In this document: in pieces, positions 9,480 through 59,234 of the stretch
How positions within the stretch are numbered: position 1 is the first letter of the stretch
How the letters are laid out: each line of letters starts with the position of its first letter
Made by a program: the position numbers and the translations under genes
Notes under the pieces: model-generated
The model's database searches: none
The model's input: only the letters and a program-made list of their open reading frames with translations
What the model was told of the DNA's origin: nothing
Assembly: GCF_054482525.1 (NCBI RefSeq)
Contig: NZ_CM137006.1
Length of the DNA stretch: 64,000 nucleotides
Reading direction: 5' to 3' (one strand)

Positions 9480-10058
9480 TTACGCCTGATGATCCGGCTT
9501 TTTCTTCCCGCGCCGTTTCAGCCACCAGCGCACGCCTACCACCAGAACCACGACCAGAATCAACCAGACCCAGTGCTTCAAATGCTGGTCGAGATTGTGC
9601 AACCACGGTGCAATCACCTGACCACCAGCGTAACCGATAGCGGTAAAAATCAACGCCCAGGCAAATGCGCCGAGAATGTTCAGCGGCAGAAAGATTTTCG
9701 GCGGCAGCTGGCTGGCACCAATCAGCGTCGGGCCAATGACCCGAAAGCCATACATAAAACGCGTACCAATGACAAACAGATACGGATGGCGTTGGATAAG
9801 TTTCTGCGCCCGCTCAATTTTATCCTGATGCTTAGAGAAACGGCGTAATAGCTTGCCGCCAAACCGCCGCCCGCACAGATAAAGCACCTGGTCGCCAATC
9901 ATGCCGCCAAGCGCCACAGAAAGTACCACCAGCGGGAACTTTAATAGCCCCTGATGCGCCGCAACGCCTCCCAGCAAAGTCACGGTTTCACCTTCCGCCA
10001 GGCTACCGATCACCAGCGCGGCATAACCATATTGTGAGATGAGTGTATTGAGATCCAT
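9480..10058 (-). CDS. yohD: DedA-family inner-membrane protein YohD
   Basis: Start placed at MDLNTLISQYGYAAL (192 aa); the ORF-track start at 10145 is an upstream extension. Confidence 0.85.
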   Translation of the reverse strand: MDLNTLISQYGYAALVIGSLAEGETVTLLGGVAAHQGLLKFPLVVLSVALGGMIGDQVLYLCGRRFGGKLLRRFSKHQDKIERAQKLIQRHPYLFVIGTRFMYGFRVIGPTLIGASQLPPKIFLPLNILGAFAWALIFTAIGYAGGQVIAPWLHNLDQHLKHWVWLILVVVLVVGVRWWLKRRGKKKPDHQA

Positions 10059-11960: not shown

Positions 11961-13675
11961 TACTCCACTTCCTGCCAGTTTTTCCGCTTACTGGTTTTAC
12001 CGATCCCCGGATTCATACTGTTGGTCGGATCGTTCTCGCGATAAAACTTCTGCAACGTCTCCGGTGCTTTATACAAATGACCGACGTTATGTTCGGCAGG
12101 GTATTGCGCGCCGCGCTGCTGTAGCAGCTCCAGCATCTGTTCTTTCAACGCATGCACATCCACGCCTTTTTTAACGATGTAATCCTGATGGAAGACATAG
12201 CACATAAAATGGCCGTAATAGAGCTTGTGCACCAGCTGGCTGTCGATCTCCGGCGGTAAATGCTCATACCACTCGGTGTCGTTACGCCGCAGAGCGATAT
12301 CCAGCGCCAGAATGTCTTCGACTTCATCGGAATGCACCGCCTGATAACGAATTGCTGCGCCCGCAGCGGCGAAACGGTGTAAAAACGCTTTGCTACCTTC
12401 CTCCGGCGTACAGACAAAGAAATCGCCTTCGGCCTGTTTGAAATAATCCACCAGCCACGATTTGGCTTCACCGACGCCATCGCCCGCCATTTTTAACAGC
12501 AGATGATGTTCATATTTATCGCGCCAGTTTTTCATGCGCGGCGGTAAATGGCTGGGGAACAGGTGACCGAATTTTTGCATCGCACGGTCGGTAAAATGCG
12601 GACGGAAGAATTTCACTTTCTCCAGCATCGCATCGGTGCGCCCCTTGAGATTAAAGAAGAACGGCATCTTGTCGGTGCCTAACTTATCAATCATCAGGAA
12701 GGTGTCTTTGCCGTATTTTTCCGCAATATCGTAGATATCCCGGTGCATATATTCCCCGGCAACCGGTAGATTTTCGAAATTAGCCAGAATATGACGGCGG
12801 ATTTCGGTCAGTACTTCCGGCTGGTTGGTGCCGATATAAAACACCTGCTGATTTTTTTCCGCTTCGAAGGTATCAAGACGTACCGCAAAGACGGCCAGCT
12901 TCCCGGCGCAACCAGAAGATTCAAATAACCGATCCGGATCGGCGTTATAACGTGCGGGCGTGTCGGCTTCAATATCACGAACGCGGTGGACATAGTCATA
13001 ATCGTGGGCGTGACGACCATCGTGGCGCACATCGTCATCTTTGATGCGATCGTCATCCAGCTTGCTAAGGATCTGCTCCGGCGTTTCGCCCAGATCAATC
13101 CCCAGATGGTTCACCAGCGTCAGTTTGCCGTCTTCATTTATACGCGCAAATAACGACATTTCGGTATACGCCGGGCCACGTTGCACCAGCGAGCCGCCGG
13201 AGTTGTTACAAATACCGCCGATGACCGATGCGCCTATACACGATGATCCAATCACCGAGTGCGGTTCGCGTCCCAGCGGTTTGAGGGCTTTTTCCAGCGA
13301 ATAAAGCGTGGTGCCCGGATAGGCCAGCACTTGTTCGCCCTTGCCGAGAACGTGCAACTTATCGAGACGCTGGGTGCTGATGATCACGATATCGCGATCA
13401 TAGTCGTTACCGTTTGGCGTCGAGCCTTCGGTCAGACCTGTATTGGCAGCCTGCATCAGAATAATTTTGTCAGCGGTGACGCAGGCTTTCAGCACCCGCC
13501 ACAATTCCAGTAGTGAGCCAGGGAAAACGACAGCCAGCGCGTCGCCCTGACCAGAACGGAAGCCCTTGCGATAGCGGGCCGTTTTTGCGGGATCGGTGAG
13601 CAGGTGTGAATGACCGACCAGACGGGCAAGTTCATTCAAAAAGGCTTTATTATCAGTTGTTGTCATGGAAGACAT
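11960..13675 (-). CDS. dld: FAD-dependent D-lactate dehydrogenase
   Basis: Start placed at MSSMTTTDNK (571 aa); recalled identity to E. coli Dld. Confidence 0.93.
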   Translation of the reverse strand: MSSMTTTDNKAFLNELARLVGHSHLLTDPAKTARYRKGFRSGQGDALAVVFPGSLLELWRVLKACVTADKIILMQAANTGLTEGSTPNGNDYDRDIVIISTQRLDKLHVLGKGEQVLAYPGTTLYSLEKALKPLGREPHSVIGSSCIGASVIGGICNNSGGSLVQRGPAYTEMSLFARINEDGKLTLVNHLGIDLGETPEQILSKLDDDRIKDDDVRHDGRHAHDYDYVHRVRDIEADTPARYNADPDRLFESSGCAGKLAVFAVRLDTFEAEKNQQVFYIGTNQPEVLTEIRRHILANFENLPVAGEYMHRDIYDIAEKYGKDTFLMIDKLGTDKMPFFFNLKGRTDAMLEKVKFFRPHFTDRAMQKFGHLFPSHLPPRMKNWRDKYEHHLLLKMAGDGVGEAKSWLVDYFKQAEGDFFVCTPEEGSKAFLHRFAAAGAAIRYQAVHSDEVEDILALDIALRRNDTEWYEHLPPEIDSQLVHKLYYGHFMCYVFHQDYIVKKGVDVHALKEQMLELLQQRGAQYPAEHNVGHLYKAPETLQKFYRENDPTNSMNPGIGKTSKRKNWQEVE

Positions 13676-20200: not shown

Positions 20201-20932
20201 TTAAATGCCGAGTGGGAAAATATCATGGCCTTGTTCCTGCCAACTGGTAAGTTGCTGCTGTTGGGCAGAGGTTCGATTTTCACCGCACCACACCAGCAAT
20301 GTACGGCCTTCGAACAGTTCAGGGCGTAGTTGATTGAGCGAGTGGGCGAGGACATCAATGCGCCATCCTTGTTGACTGGCAATCCAGCCCTCCAGCCACA
20401 GACGGGTGGTATCGTGAATATTCCAGCCAACCACCAGCGCATCTTTACCCTGTTTTTTACGTGCCGAAGCCAGACAAATGGCGATGTAGTTGATCAGTAC
20501 GCCGTCGAGGATCGCCAGCAGCGCCTGGAGAGTCGGTTGTTGGCACTGAAGTCGTCGGCGCAGAGGAATAAACAGATGCGTGGTGAGTGTCTGGGCGGGG
20601 TAATCCTGACCGCGCTCTTTGATCCACGTTCGCAGGCTATGCAGATTGCCGCTTTGCAGGTAAGTCAGTAATGTTTCTTGCTGATCGCGCCAGCCGTTCT
20701 GCACATCAACATTTTCATTACTGAGCAGCATTTTAACTTTGCTGACCTGCACGCCGTTGTCGATCCAGCGTTTGATCTCGCGGATCCGGTCAATATCGGC
20801 ATCGTTGAACAGCCGATGGCCGCCGTCTGTTCGTTGCGGTTTCAGCAATCCGTAACGCCTCTGCCACGCGCGTAACGTGACAGGGTTAATATCACAAAGC
20901 AACGCCACTTCACCAATTGTGTAAAGCGCCAT
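20201..20932 (-). CDS. mlrA: MerR-family transcriptional regulator MlrA (csgD activator)
   Basis: 243-aa ORF with N-terminal MerR-type HTH (MALYTIGEVALLCDINPVTLRAWQRRYGLL). Confidence 0.9.
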   Translation of the reverse strand: MALYTIGEVALLCDINPVTLRAWQRRYGLLKPQRTDGGHRLFNDADIDRIREIKRWIDNGVQVSKVKMLLSNENVDVQNGWRDQQETLLTYLQSGNLHSLRTWIKERGQDYPAQTLTTHLFIPLRRRLQCQQPTLQALLAILDGVLINYIAICLASARKKQGKDALVVGWNIHDTTRLWLEGWIASQQGWRIDVLAHSLNQLRPELFEGRTLLVWCGENRTSAQQQQLTSWQEQGHDIFPLGI

Positions 20933-51122: not shown

Positions 51123-51210
51123 TTTATTAACGCTATTGTAAAACTGCCGTTTTTCCTCGTTTACAACGGGTGCGCTGGACATTACCATCCTCCTCTGCGA
51201 TTTATCATCG

Positions 51211-51292
51211 CAACCAAACGACTCGGGGTGCCCTTCTGCGTGAAGGCTGAGAAATACCCGTATCACCTGATCTGGATAATGCCAGCGTAGGG
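51211..51292 (+). repeat. attL: left copy of the 82-bp direct repeat (thiM riboswitch aptamer segment)
   Basis: Identical to 59101-59182. Confidence 0.8.
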
Positions 51293-51375
51293 GGCCAAAA
51301 TAGTCTTGAAAATTATGTGGTTGTATCTCTTTTTGACCATAAATCATGCTGTTAAGGTACAAAAAGGGGTCGTTT

Positions 51376-52683
51376 ATGAGGTCAAGAACTCTCCCATACA
51401 CATTTCAGCGAAACGGTAATTACTATCTACAAATCCGGCTTTCGGATGGTCGGATATACAAAAAATCACTTTTTACTGACAGTTATCGCGAAGCATCGGC
51501 GTTGATGATTGGCCTTACTCCGCACATTCCTTTCGTTAAATCACTCGCTACTCCGTTGCCGCAATTTAATAAGTTTGTTTCAAACTTGATCGCTTCGTCA
51601 CGTAACGTAATGATTCCGTTGCCACTCCCTCAGCAATTGAACAATATTTCTAAAGAAGTTTTGCAGCTTCAACCACCAGCCAAACCGGAAAAGGTACTAA
51701 CACTTGCTGATGCGTGGGCTATGTACAAGGAGGAAAGAGGTCGAAATTGGACAAAATCGATCTCAATAGCAAATGAGCGTTATATGGAGGTATTGCTTGT
51801 TGTCTTGGGAAAAGAAACAGACGTAACGGCAATCACCAAACAAGATATTAAGCGAGTAATGGAAACTGTCGAAAACTTACCAAAGCGTGTAGTGCAACCG
51901 TATAGGTCAATGACTATTCAGCAACTAATCGAATGTGATGATGTGCTGCCAGAGGATTTAGTTGGTGCTGAGGCTGTACATAAGCACCTTAAAATCTACA
52001 AATCGTTATTCAAAACATTTCTGACTGAAAACAAAGATATTCTATCTAAGTCTCCGACTGATGGAATAGTAGCGGCACCATCCAAAGCTAGGTTTGGTGC
52101 ATACAGTGCAGCAGAAATGAAAAAATTTGTAGGATGGGCACTAAAGCAGCCTGATGGATGGCAGAAGTGGATCACTTTGTTGTTGGCGTACACAGGAGCC
52201 AGAAGAGGTGAGATTGCTAAACTGGAGAAGTCGCAGATCAAATTTGATGAAGATAGCCAGCGGCACTATCTTCTGATCGCGGAAAGAAGGCTGGGTAAAA
52301 CTGAGAATGCTACAAGACAGGTAGTGATTCATCCCAAACTGATTGAGTGGGGGTTTCTGGATTTTGTTAACCGCCAATGGAAAGAGAAAATCTTTTCGGA
52401 AGTCTCAGGTCGAAATATGTCAAAGATAGGTAAAGTTCTTTCAGATGTTCGTGATCAGCTTGATATTCCTTATCTTGATGATTATGGGCAGCGGCGCTTG
52501 GTGCATAGTTTCCGGCATACTATGATTTCTACTTGTTTAGCTGGTTGGGTGAGTAATTTGGCGCATCTGCAACAGGTGGTAGGTCATGAAAAGAGTGGAG
52601 TAGGGATTACCCAGCGTTATCTGCACACATTCCCACTTTCCACCGTTTGTTATGTGATCGATGGTCTTTGTTGGGAGACTTAG
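51376..52683 (+). CDS. int: tyrosine site-specific integrase
   Basis: ATG at 51376 preceded by SD aaaagggg; C-terminal catalytic block HSFRHTMISTCLAGW...GHEKSGVGITQRYLH (R, H-x-x-R, Y). Confidence 0.85.
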   Translation: MRSRTLPYTFQRNGNYYLQIRLSDGRIYKKSLFTDSYREASALMIGLTPHIPFVKSLATPLPQFNKFVSNLIASSRNVMIPLPLPQQLNNISKEVLQLQPPAKPEKVLTLADAWAMYKEERGRNWTKSISIANERYMEVLLVVLGKETDVTAITKQDIKRVMETVENLPKRVVQPYRSMTIQQLIECDDVLPEDLVGAEAVHKHLKIYKSLFKTFLTENKDILSKSPTDGIVAAPSKARFGAYSAAEMKKFVGWALKQPDGWQKWITLLLAYTGARRGEIAKLEKSQIKFDEDSQRHYLLIAERRLGKTENATRQVVIHPKLIEWGFLDFVNRQWKEKIFSEVSGRNMSKIGKVLSDVRDQLDIPYLDDYGQRRLVHSFRHTMISTCLAGWVSNLAHLQQVVGHEKSGVGITQRYLHTFPLSTVCYVIDGLCWET

Positions 52684-52811
52684 TTATTCGTGTATCCTTC
52701 TTAGTGTATAACCAGCTAATAATTTGTAGATTTTTATTGTCTGAGATCAAAAATTTTCACAACTAATTTACAATAATAACTTAAGATGAATTTAGGCTTA
52801 GTGAGTCTTCT

Positions 52812-53537
52812 ATGGTTAAAAATTTAGGCAAAAAATACAAGTATGGCGATCAACCGATAAGAGCTATTACCATACAGATAATTGCTAATCAGTTTGGTGG
52901 GGCTGCAACGGCTAAGCAGGTAGATGATTATCTTAGAAAGCTATTTCCATCTTATAAAGATAATACTTGGCTCAATTTAATTGCTAATACAGTTAATTGT
53001 AAGCGGAGCTACTGGAGTTTCAACAAAACTGCCCGACGAACTGATGATGTAACTCATCGGCATCATAAGTATGACCGATTGTTCAAGCGTGGAAATATTT
53101 TTGAAATCTATCAACCATCTGTGCACGGTATTTGGGAATTATACCAGGATTTAGAAGGGATGTGGCGTTATCGTCAAGTAAAATCGGTTTTCGAAGAAGC
53201 TGTTGAGACGGCTGCAAAATTATCTTCAGTGGAACGAAAGCAAATTTTAGCGACAGAAAGTAAAATCCCGGAACTAATCGAAGTAACAACACGAGTTTAT
53301 AAACGAAGCCCATATGTAGTTGCTGAAGTTCTTTTGAGAGCAAATGGAAAATGTCAATATTGTAAGCGAGATGCTCCTTTTCTAAAGGAAGATGGTACTC
53401 CATTTCTAGAAGTTCATCATATTGAGTGGCTTTCAAAGGGGGGGGAGGACTCTGTGGAAAATGCTATTGCATTATGTCCTAATTGCCATAGACAAGCCCA
53501 TTATGGCGATCTGACATTACTACCTGTTAATAAATAG
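52812..53537 (+). CDS. McrA-like HNH endonuclease (candidate type IV / modification-dependent restriction or defense nuclease)
   Basis: C-terminal CQYCKRDAPF...LEVHHIEWLSKGGEDSVENAIALCPNCHRQAHY closely resembles the recalled McrA HNH region; N-terminal about 190 aa unrecognised. Confidence 0.65.
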   Translation: MVKNLGKKYKYGDQPIRAITIQIIANQFGGAATAKQVDDYLRKLFPSYKDNTWLNLIANTVNCKRSYWSFNKTARRTDDVTHRHHKYDRLFKRGNIFEIYQPSVHGIWELYQDLEGMWRYRQVKSVFEEAVETAAKLSSVERKQILATESKIPELIEVTTRVYKRSPYVVAEVLLRANGKCQYCKRDAPFLKEDGTPFLEVHHIEWLSKGGEDSVENAIALCPNCHRQAHYGDLTLLPVNK

Positions 53538-53614
53538 GCTTGATGAAAGTTCTATTTCTATATTTTTCAATATACAAATTTCCCCAAAAACGGCGTGAAT
53601 ATCACGCCGATCAA

Positions 53615-53962
53615 TCATACTTCAGAACACATACTCAATGTGTAAACAGCCATCTCCCCATCGGGATTAGAAGGGCGTAATACAAATATCGGTATACTGC
53701 CATTGTCAATGTATGTGGCTGCAACCCCTCCGTCAGGTGTAGCATACATCTTTGCGATGCTTTTTTGACCTACAAAATCAAGTCTCCAAGTTTTACCGCC
53801 AAGATTTATGGTCATTTTTTTATCTTGTATATCAAAAGTTGAATCTACAGAAACTTTCTGACTTCCCGAGTCAATATGACCTTCCTGTATTGCTTTACAG
53901 GAAAAGGTTGTGGCGTGGCCCATCACTGGAATTAACAAAGCGGCAAATACTAGTTTTTTCAT
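53615..53962 (-). CDS. hypothetical secreted protein
   Basis: Start placed at MKKLVFAALLIPVMGHA (signal peptide); divergent from the XRE-family gene. Confidence 0.45.
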   Translation of the reverse strand: MKKLVFAALLIPVMGHATTFSCKAIQEGHIDSGSQKVSVDSTFDIQDKKMTINLGGKTWRLDFVGQKSIAKMYATPDGGVAATYIDNGSIPIFVLRPSNPDGEMAVYTLSMCSEV

Positions 53963-54072
53963 TTGTCTCCCTTGGTGTGTCAAATGGATGGTGATGCTAA
54001 TAATACATGATTGATTCAAAATGTCACGATTAGTGCGTGGTTAATTGGTGCGTCAAATTGCATCTTTGTGCC

Positions 54073-54537
54073 ATGCGAAAGAATCTGAGATACCTTTTTG
54101 GACAACGAGTAAAAGAGTTCCGTATAGCTATTGGCTTAAGCCAAGAGGCCTTTGCAGATCGGTGTGGTTTTGCACGTAGTTATATGAGTCGAATTGAGCG
54201 TGGTTGCTCTAATGCATCTCTTGATGCAATTGAGGTTCTGGCTGACGCTTTGCGTATTGAGCCTTGGCAGTTACTGGCTTCTGATTCAAGGAAACCTGAT
54301 GATCAGGAGGTACTTGTTCCTTATGCTGCAGATGGGTCGTGTTTTCATCCAGGATTGGCAAGTACTCGCGATGGTTCGTTTAGAGTAGGGGAAAAATCAG
54401 CCCAGAAACGTTTCAGTTCGTTCAATGAAGCTCTCGAATACCTTCGTGGAATGGAAACCGCGAAGTGGCGTAGGCCTAATGCTAGTGGTAATTGGGGAAT
54501 TGTATCTGCGGTTAAATGGGATCGACTGAATCAATAA
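54073..54537 (+). CDS. XRE-family helix-turn-helix transcriptional regulator with C-terminal extension
   Basis: N-terminal HTH (LRYLFGQRVKEFRIAIGLSQEAFADRCGFARSYMSRIERG); start could also be 54037. Confidence 0.6.
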   Translation: MRKNLRYLFGQRVKEFRIAIGLSQEAFADRCGFARSYMSRIERGCSNASLDAIEVLADALRIEPWQLLASDSRKPDDQEVLVPYAADGSCFHPGLASTRDGSFRVGEKSAQKRFSSFNEALEYLRGMETAKWRRPNASGNWGIVSAVKWDRLNQ

Positions 54538-54703
54538 GATATCAGTAATTTTCGGGCCACTCCACAAGGCAATAAGTGGCTTAGTGGTGATTATCGAAGG
54601 GGAATACAAGCGAGCACCTAGGCACCATTGCAAGAACCGCTCAACGCTGAGATCAGCAAGCCCCGATTTTTGCCGACCGTCCCTGTCAAATATCAAGGAG
54701 GCA

Positions 54704-55255
54704 TTACGCCACCTGCTCTTTCTTGATACGTTGCACCGTCTGCGTGCTGACACTGAAATCTTTTGCTACGCTCCGAATTGAGCCACCATTCGCGAGAGCG
54801 GCAGCAATTCCCGCTCGATCAATTGCTTTTCCATTACCACGTTTTGCTATACGTCCAGCGGCCTTGGCTGCGGCGATCCCTTCACGTTGACGCTCAAGCA
54901 TCATTTCACGTTCCATTTGTGCCACTGCTGCAAGAACTGTGAGCATCATATTCCCTGCGGGAGAGTTCTTTCCTGTCTTAAAGTCTTCTTTATGGAAATG
55001 CACAGACACGCCGCGCTTTGTTAATTGCTCTACAGTTGCCAGAAGGTCGGCTGTATTACGACAAAGGCGATCAATACTATGGACGTGTAACACGTCACCC
55101 TCCCGCACATAGTTCATCATTGCCTCAAACTGTGGGCGCTGAGTGTTCTTGCCTGACGCTTTATCTTCAAAGACTTTATCAAGAGTTACTCCTGCTAATT
55201 GACGGTCTGTGTTTTGTTGCACAGTCGATACCCTAATGTATCCAATATTAGCCAT
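54704..55255 (-). CDS. small serine recombinase (resolvase/invertase family)
   Basis: N-terminal catalytic motif GYIRVSTVQQ (Ser nucleophile) and C-terminal HTH; 183 aa. Confidence 0.8.
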   Translation of the reverse strand: MANIGYIRVSTVQQNTDRQLAGVTLDKVFEDKASGKNTQRPQFEAMMNYVREGDVLHVHSIDRLCRNTADLLATVEQLTKRGVSVHFHKEDFKTGKNSPAGNMMLTVLAAVAQMEREMMLERQREGIAAAKAAGRIAKRGNGKAIDRAGIAAALANGGSIRSVAKDFSVSTQTVQRIKKEQVA

Positions 55256-55741
55256 CTTCTTTTTTCTTCTGTATTGATTTGTGTGTAGTGATTATTGAAC
55301 GTGTTGATTAGGTGTGTAAAGTACTTTTTTCACTACGAAATTCGAAGTTTTTTAGTGTGGTGATTTAGCCTGCCTTATCACTACACTTCTTGCATGAGAA
55401 TCATGTAGTTACATTTTGGTAAAATTAGCAAGCTATTAAATTGTGTGTTTATTTTGAAAAAATAATTTTTGTTGCATTAAAGAAAACTTGTTCGACAAAT
55501 AATAGGTTGATTTTTGATCAATAATTTCTGATAGTGCTCTGTAAGCCGCATTACACAAGGCGCAGCGAAAGTGATGTAAAAGTGAAGAAAGCTAACATTG
55601 CACTTTTAAACTACTTTTCATTGAATTTTTTAGTATGGAATTACACAGGAATAAGTTAGGGATATTCTATGATTTACACAGGGAATATAGGGGGATTATG
55701 GTATTACACAGAGTGAGTGCTATGTGATGATTGGTAGTAAC

Positions 55742-55850
55742 GGTAGGTCACTGTGAACTAGGGGGGTAGGTCACTGTGAACTAGGGGGGTAGGTCACTGT
55801 GAGCTAGGGGGTAGGTCACTGTGAACTAGGGGGTAGGTCACTGTGAACTA
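55742..55850 (+). repeat. iteron array (5 direct repeats of about 22-24 bp), candidate replication origin
   Basis: ggtaggtcactgtgaactaggggg repeated five times head-to-tail, flanked by AT-rich DNA and further ttacacag / gtgtaatt motifs. Confidence 0.7.
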
Positions 55851-57106
55851 CAATAAGACTATAATAAGACTATTAATAAAACTATATTAGATTATTAATT
55901 AGATCATAATAATAATATTCTTTATATCTATATATATATGATCTTTTGCCTTCCGGCGTTAGCTTCACTCTCTGGCAAGCAGCCTTACTCCGCTACCTTT
56001 CGGGCTACGTTGGCTGGCCCGTTCCGCTCACACCGAAAGCAAAGCGTTACTTTCTTCGTGTAACTTCGTTGGCGGTAACGCCCACGAAGGAATACTATTG
56101 CGCTGTGCGCAGTAAGAGTAATCACCTAACCAATCATCTGATTGCTTACGTGTTAACTCTCTCTAACTCTTAATTACCCTCCTACATTTAATAACTCTCG
56201 TTATTCTCTGTAGTTGTGTAATTACTCGAAGAGAGAGCGGCTAAAGCTCAATTACACTCTGCTTTCCTCGTGTAATTTCACTAAGCCTCAATACAATTTC
56301 ACTTCCTACATTCTGTAGTCGTGTAATTGTTTTCGGTGGAAAAGCCAGAGGCGACACCGAAAGAGAATTCTGATCTTATTAATCTTATCTATCTTAGTTA
56401 TCTTACTTACTTTATCTACTTTATTATTAATAATAGCTTTATAAGCTCTCTGTGTAGCTCTCTGACGCAAGAAACAGAGTTCAGGAAGGGAATCACCTTA
56501 GAAAAGTGTTCTTTGCGTCATAATGTGTTTTATGAAGGATTCAGAGGTGTTTCATAACAGAGATGTATAGAGGATACTTTAGGTAATTAAAAATAAGGGG
56601 TCTAAATGCTTCTCTAACAGCATTAAGCAGGGTAGAGAATGGAAACCGCTTTGCCTACATATATAAACTCACTACAGGGCTTTACAGAGCGTTTTATAAA
56701 GTGACTCTCTGTTTTATATCTACCATCACCTTTTCATATACCTAACAAATACAAAATAAGCCCCTTAAATAAGCCTCTGGCGAGCTAAACAGCCATTACA
56801 TAAGAGAATGTATTGCTTTTATCAAAACCTCGTTAGAACGCGTTTTAGAGCGTTTTAGCGGATAATGAAGAATAGCACTACACAGGAGAGCACGAATTGC
56901 TAAGAAAAAATGTAACTACATGAAAAAGATCAGATTTTTTGTGAAAAGGTATTGACAAACGTCTCTTTCTGTGCAATAATAGGTATTAGAGGGACAGGAA
57001 TAGATTCTTATCCTCTAAATAATTAAACCAATGCACCGCACTTTGAAGCCCAAGGCTTGTAAGGTGTGTTTTTTCTTTTAACCAAATAGAATAAGGAGGC
57101 TAATTA

Positions 57107-57295
57107 ATGAAATATTTTACTCCACAGGATGTAGTAGAAGCCTGGAAACGTGGTGAGATCAACCGCTTTAAAGTAAGGATGTATAGAAACACCGCTCGCC
57201 GTTGTGGTTATCCAGAGCGTGAAAAATGTTTTGACGATGCACTAAAAATTATTGATGAACTGCGTAAAGCTGAGAAAGAAGCAGAGAAAAAATAA
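57107..57295 (+). CDS. hypothetical small protein (62 aa)
   Basis: ATG preceded by strong SD aaggagg; first of four co-directional genes each with a strong SD. Confidence 0.45.
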   Translation: MKYFTPQDVVEAWKRGEINRFKVRMYRNTARRCGYPEREKCFDDALKIIDELRKAEKEAEKK

Positions 57296-57317
57296 TAGAC
57301 AAGAGAAGGAGAAAACT

Positions 57318-57485
57318 ATGAGCGAAACTAAGAAACCAATTCCGCGCACTTACCTACACGTTGACCCTGAAATCTTCAAGGTTTTATTTGCTGAAGCCAA
57401 GAAAAGGCAAATTATGGTCAGTGATTTGATGTTAGAAATCATTACTGAAGCAGCAGAGAACATCAAACAAAAAAAGGGTAAGTGA
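57318..57485 (+). CDS. hypothetical small protein, possibly ribbon-helix-helix DNA-binding (56 aa)
   Basis: ATG preceded by SD aaggag; below the ORF-track cut-off from this start; RHH call is weak pattern-based inference. Confidence 0.4.
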   Translation: MSETKKPIPRTYLHVDPEIFKVLFAEAKKRQIMVSDLMLEIITEAAENIKQKKGK

Positions 57486-57536
57486 TCCTCATTCACTTTA
57501 GTAGCGCATTAAGCGTGATTTATAAGGAGATTTTTA

Positions 57537-58226
57537 ATGATTAATCAACTAACTTTTACAAAACACTATGACACGTTTGATAATGTATCAAAGATTTATT
57601 CTGATAAATTCCCTCAAGGAAAAGATTTAGATCTATTACATATTGTGCTTTATTTTCGATTCCTTAGTTATCAGGAAAACAACCTTAATTGTTATGAAAG
57701 TCACGAAACATTAGCTAAGATTTTTAAGTCTTCAGCGTCAACAATTAAACGTAAGATAAACGATCTTAAAGAGATGGGATTATTAGAAACATCCCCACAT
57801 CCTGATCCGTATATTTCATCTTTGATTTACAATGCTCTCCCTCTCACAGATGCACATATTACTCCCCCAGGAGAATCATCACTCTCTGATCTTTCTGAGG
57901 CAGAAGAAGCACAGGAACAACCTAAAGGCCATAAACAGCCTTCTTTTGATGTTCTTGATGATTGGGATACGCCTTTACCCTGGGAGACGGAAGAAACACC
58001 TGTTTCATCAAGTGAAAAAGTAGCTAATGATAATGAGGAGGATGTGTTAGAGAATTTTGCCTCTCTTATCATCCAGGAGAAACACACAAGAACAGGAGGA
58101 GCATCATTTATTGAGTTTGCAAATTCACTAGCTTGTAGATACGGGCTAAAACGACCAAATGGTATTGAGGCATATTTTTCTAAGAATTACCCAAATATAT
58201 ACGATGACTTTGATATTCCATTTTAA
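57537..58226 (+). CDS. putative winged-helix DNA-binding / replication-initiator-like protein
   Basis: 229-aa ORF with SD aaggag; N-terminal HTH-like segment and acidic C-terminus; lies downstream of the iteron array. Confidence 0.4.
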   Translation: MINQLTFTKHYDTFDNVSKIYSDKFPQGKDLDLLHIVLYFRFLSYQENNLNCYESHETLAKIFKSSASTIKRKINDLKEMGLLETSPHPDPYISSLIYNALPLTDAHITPPGESSLSDLSEAEEAQEQPKGHKQPSFDVLDDWDTPLPWETEETPVSSSEKVANDNEEDVLENFASLIIQEKHTRTGGASFIEFANSLACRYGLKRPNGIEAYFSKNYPNIYDDFDIPF

Positions 58227-58237
58227 TAAGGAGGGTT

Positions 58238-58483
58238 ATGATTCAATATTTAGTAAAAAATCAAGTAGACAGAATTCAGTGTAATGACACAGGAAAACGC
58301 ATCTACGAGACACTTGTTTACCTCTATAAAGGAAAGCCAACACCGCTAAAATATAGCGATGTGTTACATCGAGCAGGTTGCTCTGAGTCAGGTTTAAAAT
58401 TCTGGCTGAAACAGCTATCAAATTTCGGTGTTATTGAAATGAAAGAGCTGTCTTTTTCTACATTCAACCTCAAGAAGTTATAG
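58238..58483 (+). CDS. hypothetical small DNA-binding-like protein (81 aa)
   Basis: ATG preceded by SD aaggagg. Confidence 0.4.
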   Translation: MIQYLVKNQVDRIQCNDTGKRIYETLVYLYKGKPTPLKYSDVLHRAGCSESGLKFWLKQLSNFGVIEMKELSFSTFNLKKL

Positions 58484-58648
58484 AAAATAGAATTCATCTA
58501 TTCCACGCTCTAATTCTATTTCTCTGTTTAATATAAAAGGAAAACATTATTATGGTAATAGCTATGTGGTGGTTGTTGTTTTTTATGCTCGTAGAAACAT
58601 ATGCAAGTAAGTCTGGAAAACAAAAATAATATATTGATGATTTGTTTT

Positions 58649-58888
58649 TTATAACTTCGTGGTGTCAAGTCCAGCAGCTTTGAGTCGCTCGGTAAGATTT
58701 CTCATTTTGCTGAACTCTGTACCAAAGCTGGCTTTAAGTCCTACACCTTCACAAAACTCTTTTGCCGTAACCTTTTTCAGATGGTCAGCATATTTGATCA
58801 TCTGGAGGTGCATTTCCATCGTTTGGCTATTTCGTGGTGCGCTGCTAATGGCTTGCTTAATGTTCTCGTAGATCTGGGTTTCTGTCAT
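58649..58888 (-). CDS. hypothetical small HTH-like protein (79 aa)
   Basis: 79-aa ORF convergent with the four-gene module; possible HTH (VTAKEFCEGVGLKASFGTEFSKM). Confidence 0.35.
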   Translation of the reverse strand: MTETQIYENIKQAISSAPRNSQTMEMHLQMIKYADHLKKVTAKEFCEGVGLKASFGTEFSKMRNLTERLKAAGLDTTKL

Positions 58889-59100
58889 TTTTTATCTCAC
58901 CTATCAAATTTAGATAAATAATATAAATTAGCAAATTAAGATAATCAATAGTTTTTATCATCTGAATGATAGATGTTAAATGTTTCTTTTTCATTTCTGA
59001 TATGGGGTACAAAATGGGGTACACAGAGAAGAAGCAATTAATGGAGGCGAGCTTGCATCTGCAAGCCACTTCCCCTAAGCTGGCACAAAATATAGAGATT

Positions 59101-59234
59101 CAACCAAACGACTCGGGGTGCCCTTCTGCGTGAAGGCTGAGAAATACCCGTATCACCTGATCTGGATAATGCCAGCGTAGGGAAGTCACGGACCACCAGG
59201 TCATTGCTTCTTCACGTTATGGCAGGAGCAAACT
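59101..59234 (+). promoter_or_regulatory. thiM TPP riboswitch (thi-box aptamer plus expression platform)
   Basis: Sequence cgactcggggtgcccttctgcgtgaaggctgagaaatacccgtatcacctgatctggataatgccagcgtagggaagtc... matches the E. coli thiM riboswitch from memory; ends at the thiM start codon; the first 82 nt double as attR. Confidence 0.85.

Follow-up and report, generated by a model that had tools for sequence, protein, structure and literature searches.

What binds two copies of a short word that stand side by side just inside the right end of an island in the thiM leader, and what do they do there? The question comes from a sequence-only reading of the window (the whole stretch of DNA analysed here, 64 kb long), in which the copies were proposed to be arm-type sites of a lambda-type tyrosine integrase. 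Arm-type sites are textbook features, and here they mainly complete the annotation of attP, attL and attR in an unstudied island family that occurs in about 10% of E. coli genomes, the int-less remnants in O157:H7 and E. coli B included. The integration target is unusual, with a riboswitch aptamer that serves as attB and is rebuilt by the island.

The island and its attachment sites

The island measures 7.9 kb (51293-59100) and is flanked by a perfect 82-bp direct repeat, which corresponds to the 5' part of the thiM TPP riboswitch; both copies exceed the Rfam gathering threshold as TPP riboswitch aptamers (Table 1). When the island is taken out and its flanks are joined, the resulting empty site is found as one uninterrupted sequence in 4727 of 5426 complete E. 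coli genomes (87%), and the island ends are real attachment sites. The island brings the 5' 82 nt of the aptamer, so that an intact riboswitch-thiM unit is rebuilt at attR and a truncated aptamer remains at attL. A tRNA or tmRNA target was also considered and rejected, as no tRNA was found and the tmRNA match was noise, at 15 bits where the gathering score is 47. The whole island is present in 64 E. coli genomes and its right arm in 570, at 100%, 93%, 87% (the O157:H7 remnants) or 73% identity (E. coli B and others).

In several genomes the mismatches between attL and attR stop short of the right end of the repeat by about 25 bp and leave the block CCTGATCTGGATAATGCCAGCGTAG. The attL and attR copies of this block agree in nearly every island compared; only island L001, whose attL copy is decayed, departs from this. 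Judging from these mismatch positions, strand exchange likely occurs inside the CTGG-ATAATG-CCAG stem-loop of the aptamer. Integrases that target tRNA genes have their cores in the anticodon loop or the T-loop, and the placement in this stem-loop is analogous.

Table 1. Features of the island and its ends, with positions in the 64-kb window.
Feature	Position	Strand	Basis or remark
attL copy of the 82-bp repeat, aptamer without native P1 3' strand	51211..51292	+	RF00059, 61.3 bits
Candidate P'-arm unit 1, TGTTAAGGTACA (TGAGGTACA in relatives)	51350..51361	+	Motif comparison, shared-word test
Doubtful P'-arm unit 2, AAAAGGGGTCGT	51362..51373	+	Weak match; coincides with int Shine-Dalgarno
Candidate P'-arm unit 3, TTATGAGGTCAA (ATGGGGTACA in relatives)	51374..51385	+	Overlaps int start codon at 51376
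Tyrosine integrase (Int), 435 aa	51376..52683	+	PF00589
Candidate P-arm (right-end) arm-type repeat 1, 12-nt frame ATATGGGGTACA	59000..59011	+	Counterpart repeats kept in relatives
Candidate P-arm arm-type repeat 2, AAATGGGGTACA	59012..59023	+	TGGGGT.C invariant across 9 aligned right arms
Conserved P-arm spacer from repeats to riboswitch copy	59024..59100	+	Right-arm alignment
Inverted copy of core right half, CCCTAAGCTGGCA vs TGCCAGCGTAGGG	59073..59085	-	Compared with 59170-59182
attR copy of the 82-bp repeat, intact TPP aptamer continuing into thiM (ATG 59235)	59101..59182	+	RF00059, 71.2 bits
Predicted core, 25-bp block CCTGATCTGGATAATGCCAGCGTAG	59156..59180	+	From attL/attR mismatch positions

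In the P arm of every subtype, 13-27 nt of the core region recur in inverted orientation 80-92 bp upstream of the true core. This inverted copy is longer, 27 nt, in other subtypes (L009, 13433-13459 versus 13540-13566; compare L020, 20207-20231 versus 20324-20345), and in the window it reaches the host-side GGGAAG bases when the adjacent bases are read (59068-59085). It might serve Int as an additional site of the core type or act as an antisense element at the RNA level. Furthermore, right-arm-type sequence lies directly left of attL in six related islands (L002, L003, L007, L020, L021, L032), which form tandem arrays of two islands, sometimes of differing motif types, at the same riboswitch site. 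Plasmid matches cover the HTH_73 promoter region only, an attP-type junction was found in no viral contig, and no IHF sites were identified.

Repeats at the right end

The sequence of 59000-59026 reads atATGGGGTACAaaATGGGGTACAcag, and 59002-59023 within it is gatATGGGGTACAaaATGGGGTACAcag. Two direct copies had been read at this end, and they are indeed there as an exact 10-mer, ATGGGGTACA, in tandem at 59002-59011 and 59014-59023, about 80 bp inward of the island end; the spacing of about 10 bp that had been given for them does not hold, the copies being 12 bp apart from start to start with a gap of 2 bp. GGGGTACA occurs twice in the 64-kb window on both strands together, both times at the right end, against 0.91 copies expected in the whole window, and two copies at a distance of 12 bp are far beyond chance. 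The spacer that follows holds a GCTTGC-N4-GCAAGC palindrome, the inverted core-like copy and a conserved TATAGAGATT.

An open reading frame of 55 codons (58966-59133, plus strand) runs through the repeats with the translation …MGYKMGYTEKK…; it is most likely spurious, and its MGYK repeats only mirror the int-start word ATGGGGTACAAA.

Units around the integrase start

The related motif that had been noticed at the left end, near 51355, can be confirmed, as GGTACAAAAAGGGGT (51357-51371) matches GGTACAAAATGGGGT of the right end (59006-59020) at 14 of 15 positions on the same strand. Judged within the window alone, this match has only modest significance: when one mismatch is allowed, TGRGGTACA has 16 sites in the 64-kb window, where 15.7 are expected, and the longest word common to the two arms of the window island (9 nt) was reached in 11 of 500 shuffles. 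The left end consists of three weaker units on the same strand and in a 12-bp phase, the last of which overlaps the start codon of the integrase gene. In the window island these units match at only 7-8 of 12 positions, and the words TAAGGTACA, AGGGGTCGT and ATGAGGTCA are weaker than those of the closest relatives (type A, see below), the window Int opening with MRSR. The middle unit is doubtful as an arm site; it appears to be mainly the int Shine-Dalgarno sequence and is not counted as a secure arm site.

Another explanation is that the right-end repeats are an operator or activator site for a leftward HTH_73 promoter, and that the left motif is simply the Shine-Dalgarno and start context of int together with the 3' half of a hairpin that sequesters the Shine-Dalgarno sequence. 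Promoter-like hexamers are indeed present on the minus strand just inside the repeats (58994-58966 and 58948-58920), AAAGGGG is the Shine-Dalgarno sequence of int, and CTCTTTTTG...CAAAAAGGG are able to pair in all type A left arms. However, the repeats remain where the HTH_73 gene is absent, and in four different motif types the two ends share one word. As for the hairpin, no covariation was found in it among the type A left arms, and the GGTACA cores of units 1 and 3 lie outside it. We regard this explanation as very unlikely for the repeats as a whole, although the Shine-Dalgarno and hairpin part of it probably applies to the middle left unit.

The conserved pairing could sequester the int Shine-Dalgarno sequence in a read-through RNA. 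The native thiM promoter (TTTACA-17-TACCAT, window 51160-51188) is now directed through the attL aptamer copy to int; no strong int promoter was detected (window 51211-51376).

Conservation in the related islands

Homologues of the integrase with 64-84% identity are found in at least ten other enterobacterial genera, in every case about 84 bp downstream of a TPP-riboswitch copy. A motif search at both ends of related islands had been suggested as a check on the arm-site proposal, and the outcome is favourable, in that the enterobacterial relatives, from more than ten genera, retain two to three phased repeats per arm. The subtype nearest to the window island, type A, includes islands in Lelliottia, Enterobacter, Citrobacter, Atlantibacter and other E. 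coli. Their right arm carries three direct repeats in a 12-bp phase, ATGGGGTACAaaCTGAGGTACAagNTGGGGTACA, about 95-130 bp before the riboswitch repeat, where the window island has two and the O157 remnant one. Their left arm, too, has its units all on one strand; TGAGGTACA comes first, a weak unit at the Shine-Dalgarno sequence stands in the middle, and ATGGGGTACA contains the int ATG. Their Int begins with MGYK. In two islands with different neighbouring genes (L019 and L001), the similarity to the right arm of the window starts exactly at the first repeat.

The variation in copy number, from one to three between islands, would also be seen if the repeats were a functionless chance duplication produced by replication slippage. 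Yet the repeats are kept across genera amid an upstream context that is otherwise unalignable, their phasing and strand are conserved, the opposite end of the island has matching copies, and a clade that targets rnpB shows the layout again. This possibility is strongly disfavoured and, in our view, extremely improbable.

Decay of the repeats in int-less remnants (one unit in O157; a substitution and an indel in L045) was suggestive, but this line of evidence was dropped because the decay does not exceed the background divergence of the arm of about 8%. Several related int genes are pseudogenes, cut at 54-370 codons (L001, L007, L008, L009, L021, L023), and many of the islands with int pseudogenes are probably immobile. 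Remnants without int are exemplified by O157 FORC_044 (L042, 13048-15213) and T7 Express (L043, 7797-15205). In the O157:H7 lineage and in E. coli B, the 5' part of the thiM riboswitch and the region upstream of it are island-derived. T7 Express furthermore has a tetR/tetA insertion and an ISVsa5 (IS4-family) element within the HTH_73 gene, an insertion that we take to be Tn10-derived.

The integrase and its N-terminal domain

The int gene is directed into the island, and its start lies 84 bp inward of the left repeat. The protein consists of an arm-binding-like N-terminal domain (residues 1-78), a disordered linker (77-104), a core-binding domain (about 110-220) and a catalytic domain (about 245-435). 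The catalytic residues R276/R277, K308, H377-x-x-R380, H404 and Y415, in the order R...K...HxxR...H...Y, are invariant in 22 homologues. An AlphaFold2 model of residues 1-82 (pLDDT 88) shows helices after a three-stranded antiparallel sheet (9-12, 15-21, 27-31), and in the model of the full-length protein the disordered linker connects this domain to the core-binding and catalytic domains. The models thus predict a separate N-terminal arm-binding domain of sheet and helix on a flexible linker.

The modelled fold of the N-terminal domain is closest to the arm-binding domains of the lambda and HPI integrases. In the model, the domain resembles the arm-binding families at the level of the fold only: the Int N-terminus matches none of the Pfam arm-binding families (Arm-DNA-bind_1-5, DUF4102 and others), PF00589 being the sole match at E<=0.01, and a search of the Int sequence against the PDB returned nothing useful. 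There is no detectable sequence similarity to the N-terminal domain of lambda Int, with about 20% identity over 49 aligned residues.

Motif types change with the N-terminal domain

The repeat words of the related islands fall into motif types, GGGGTACA, GGGNCACA and TGTCACACA, which change along with the N-terminal domain of the integrase. Islands whose Int begins with MGHK (type B) carry GGGNCACA repeats on both arms, the word at the ATG being ATGGGACACA or ATGGGCCACA and that at the opposite end GTGGGTCACAacGTGAGACACAaaCTGGGACACA. Those whose Int begins with MAHT carry TGTCAC(A/T)CA or GGCACACA; their left arm has TTGTCACTC...ATGGCACACA and their right arm CTGTCACTCAtcCTGTCACACA. Integrases of different subtypes share 69-74% identity overall, compared with 32-34% in the first 82 residues.

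The similarity of the two arms was measured by the longest word that they share. This test replaced a 22-nt ungapped-window similarity statistic, which was uninformative because the unit patterns differ between the arms. Left and right arms share same-strand words of 8-13 nt within type A, 9 nt within type B and 10 nt within the rnpB-targeting type, compared with 5-8 nt between these types and 5-7 nt in a reverse-strand control. The observed word length was reached in at most 11 of 500 shuffles for most islands. One island with an int pseudogene (L021) is an exception, with a B/C-type left end and a D-type right end, and appears to be chimeric.

Because the identity between subtypes is low only in the N-terminal domain, and the motif type differs with it, the N-terminal module and the repeat word appear to have been swapped as a pair, on a core-binding and catalytic body that hardly changed. 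This body would have stayed nearly constant because the core, the riboswitch, is the same in all subtypes. The joint change of sites and domain points to the N-terminal domain as the probable seat of arm-site specificity, with the major co-variation resting on a few independent switches, namely A versus B/C/D, plus the rnpB clade. The three or four motif types with swapped N-terminal domains and a near-identical catalytic body represent a natural experiment, which could serve studies of arm-site specificity or attempts to re-engineer it.

Xis-like proteins and other recombination directionality factors (RDFs) typically bind tandem direct repeats in an att arm. The right-end repeats look like such a target, and they might bind an RDF or another island-encoded regulator instead of Int; several small unassigned open reading frames (57107-57295, 57318-57485 and 58238-58483) and the HTH_73 gene adjoining the right end could provide candidates. 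However, the motif is present on both arms, unlike an RDF array, which would be expected on one arm only and together with a conserved small protein. Furthermore, no excisionase or RDF family was detected among the island proteins (Pfam, PHROGs, NCBIfam), and the only protein common to all the repeat-bearing islands is Int, the HTH_73 gene being absent from L019 and L001. The motif type, moreover, follows the N-terminal domain of Int. A regulator of this kind is therefore unlikely, and Int is the better candidate binder than an RDF or a transcription factor because the sites on both arms track its N-terminal domain.

We consider it likely that the tandem ATGGGGTACA copies are the P-arm arm-type sites, and the units at the int start the P'-arm sites, of the island's own heterobivalent tyrosine integrase. 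The arm-site proposal of the sequence-only reading is supported by the phased repeats on both arms, their conservation across genera, the co-variation with the N-terminal domain and its predicted fold, and the recurrence of the layout at rnpB. In attP, repeats that differ from the core sequence flank the core on both sides (59000-59023 and 51350-51385), and the relatives share this layout. Relative to the predicted crossover, the window sites lie at about -162 to -143 and +75 to +110. We counted the distance of the P-arm sites, about 145-165 bp, against the arm-site explanation; the distances between arm sites and crossover in lambda are of the same order as those predicted here.

Distant relatives at rnpB

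More distant relatives of the integrase, with about 30% identity, are encoded directly after the RNase P RNA gene (rnpB) in marine Gammaproteobacteria. Six of the islands (L024, L025, L026, L028, L030, L033; about 9540-9915 in most) have inserted at the 3' part of rnpB and show direct repeats of 117-175 bp. The int reading frames of this type open with ATGGTACAnnAACTGGTACA, which consists of two TGGTACA units in a 12-bp phase and encodes MVHKLVQ. A second TGGTACA pair is found on the same strand 28-85 bp before the right-hand partial rnpB repeat in L025, L028 and L030, for which both ends are available. The four-fold-degenerate GTA codons inside these units are fixed in eight of nine sequences, whereas later codons vary; this fixation indicates a constraint at the level of the DNA.

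The relatives at rnpB suggest an integrase clade that is specialised on structured RNA elements. One tentative hypothesis, which we hold to be possible rather than probable, is that these enzymes represent an undescribed clade for structured non-coding RNAs, with the TPP aptamer as target in the Enterobacterales and RNase P RNA in marine Gammaproteobacteria, and with the P' site fused to the int start codon. If so, the first codons of the integrase (MGYK, MVHKLVQ) would be dictated by the binding site and Int would directly gate its own synthesis. Integration also leaves int downstream of the thiM promoter of the host and of a copy of the TPP aptamer, and int expression could in this way be coupled to thiamine status. 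No description of riboswitch- or rnpB-targeting integrases was found in the literature searched, the coverage of which is incomplete.

A model for the attachment site and its relation to known systems

In the attP of the excised circle, as we propose it, two to three repeats would come first, then a conserved spacer of some 95 bp and the 82-bp copy of the aptamer with the core; after about 60 bp more, the repeats over the int ATG would follow. The N-terminal beta-sheet and helix domain of Int would bind the repeats, and its C-terminal domains would bind the core in the CTGG-ATAATG-CCAG stem-loop of the aptamer. By bridging arm and core in this manner, Int may assemble the intasome that inserts the island into the thiM leader or excises it. 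Because the P' site covers the int ribosome-binding site and ATG, Int bound there would probably repress int, as in the case of KplE1 IntS. With the arm site built into the int start codon, and retained in relatives whose protein identity is as low as 30%, a very direct loop of autoregulation is predicted.

The N-terminal domain of the Yersinia HPI integrase belongs to a DUF4102-type family. The window Int matches no DUF4102-type Pfam family, and the P4-like HPI integrase (arm-domain structure 3jtz) also differs in its target, the asn tRNA genes. Compared with the arm-type sites of phage lambda Int, to which its N-terminal domain binds (P1, P2 and P'1-P'3; PDB 1z1b, 2wcc), the island appears to have a functionally lambda-type heterobivalent layout. 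However, the motif GGGGTACA and its 12-bp phasing differ from those in lambda, the core is located in a riboswitch aptamer rather than in an intergenic attB, and no Xis was identified here.

In the IntS-TorI system of KplE1 (CPS-53) and HK620, attL overlaps the intS promoter, the arm sites lie over PintS, and autorepression by IntS has been demonstrated (PMC2951348). Likewise, int in the window adjoins attL and is transcribed away from it, and the putative P' sites lie over int expression signals; negative autoregulation would be an expected consequence here, as in that system (PMC2951348). The site in the window differs, however, in that it covers the start codon and ribosome-binding site, whereas theirs covers a mapped -10 box, and the target is a riboswitch rather than a tRNA gene; nor was a TorI-like RDF found in the window island. 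The dusA-specific integrases resemble the present one in that they insert in the 5' part of a host transcription unit and carry a replacement copy of the displaced 5' sequence (PMC4482086). Their target is a coding 5' end, in contrast to the non-coding riboswitch aptamer here, and the two clades are unrelated as far as tested.

Cargo and replication functions

The cargo next to int is variable and defence-like. The window island encodes an HNH endonuclease (52812-53537), strain H6 has GmrSD (L044, 10740-12311), and MRE162 has SIR2, ImmA/IrrE and HigB (L046, 5620-9831). Five iterons of 22-23 bp, GGGGGTAGGTCACTGTGAACTA, are found at 55739-55855 and are followed by an AT-rich stretch; kinship of these iterons with the end repeats was considered and rejected, since they have a different, unrelated motif. 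An HTH_36 protein (57537-58226) matches replication-initiator PHROGs of phages and plasmids, and the island probably replicates after excision.
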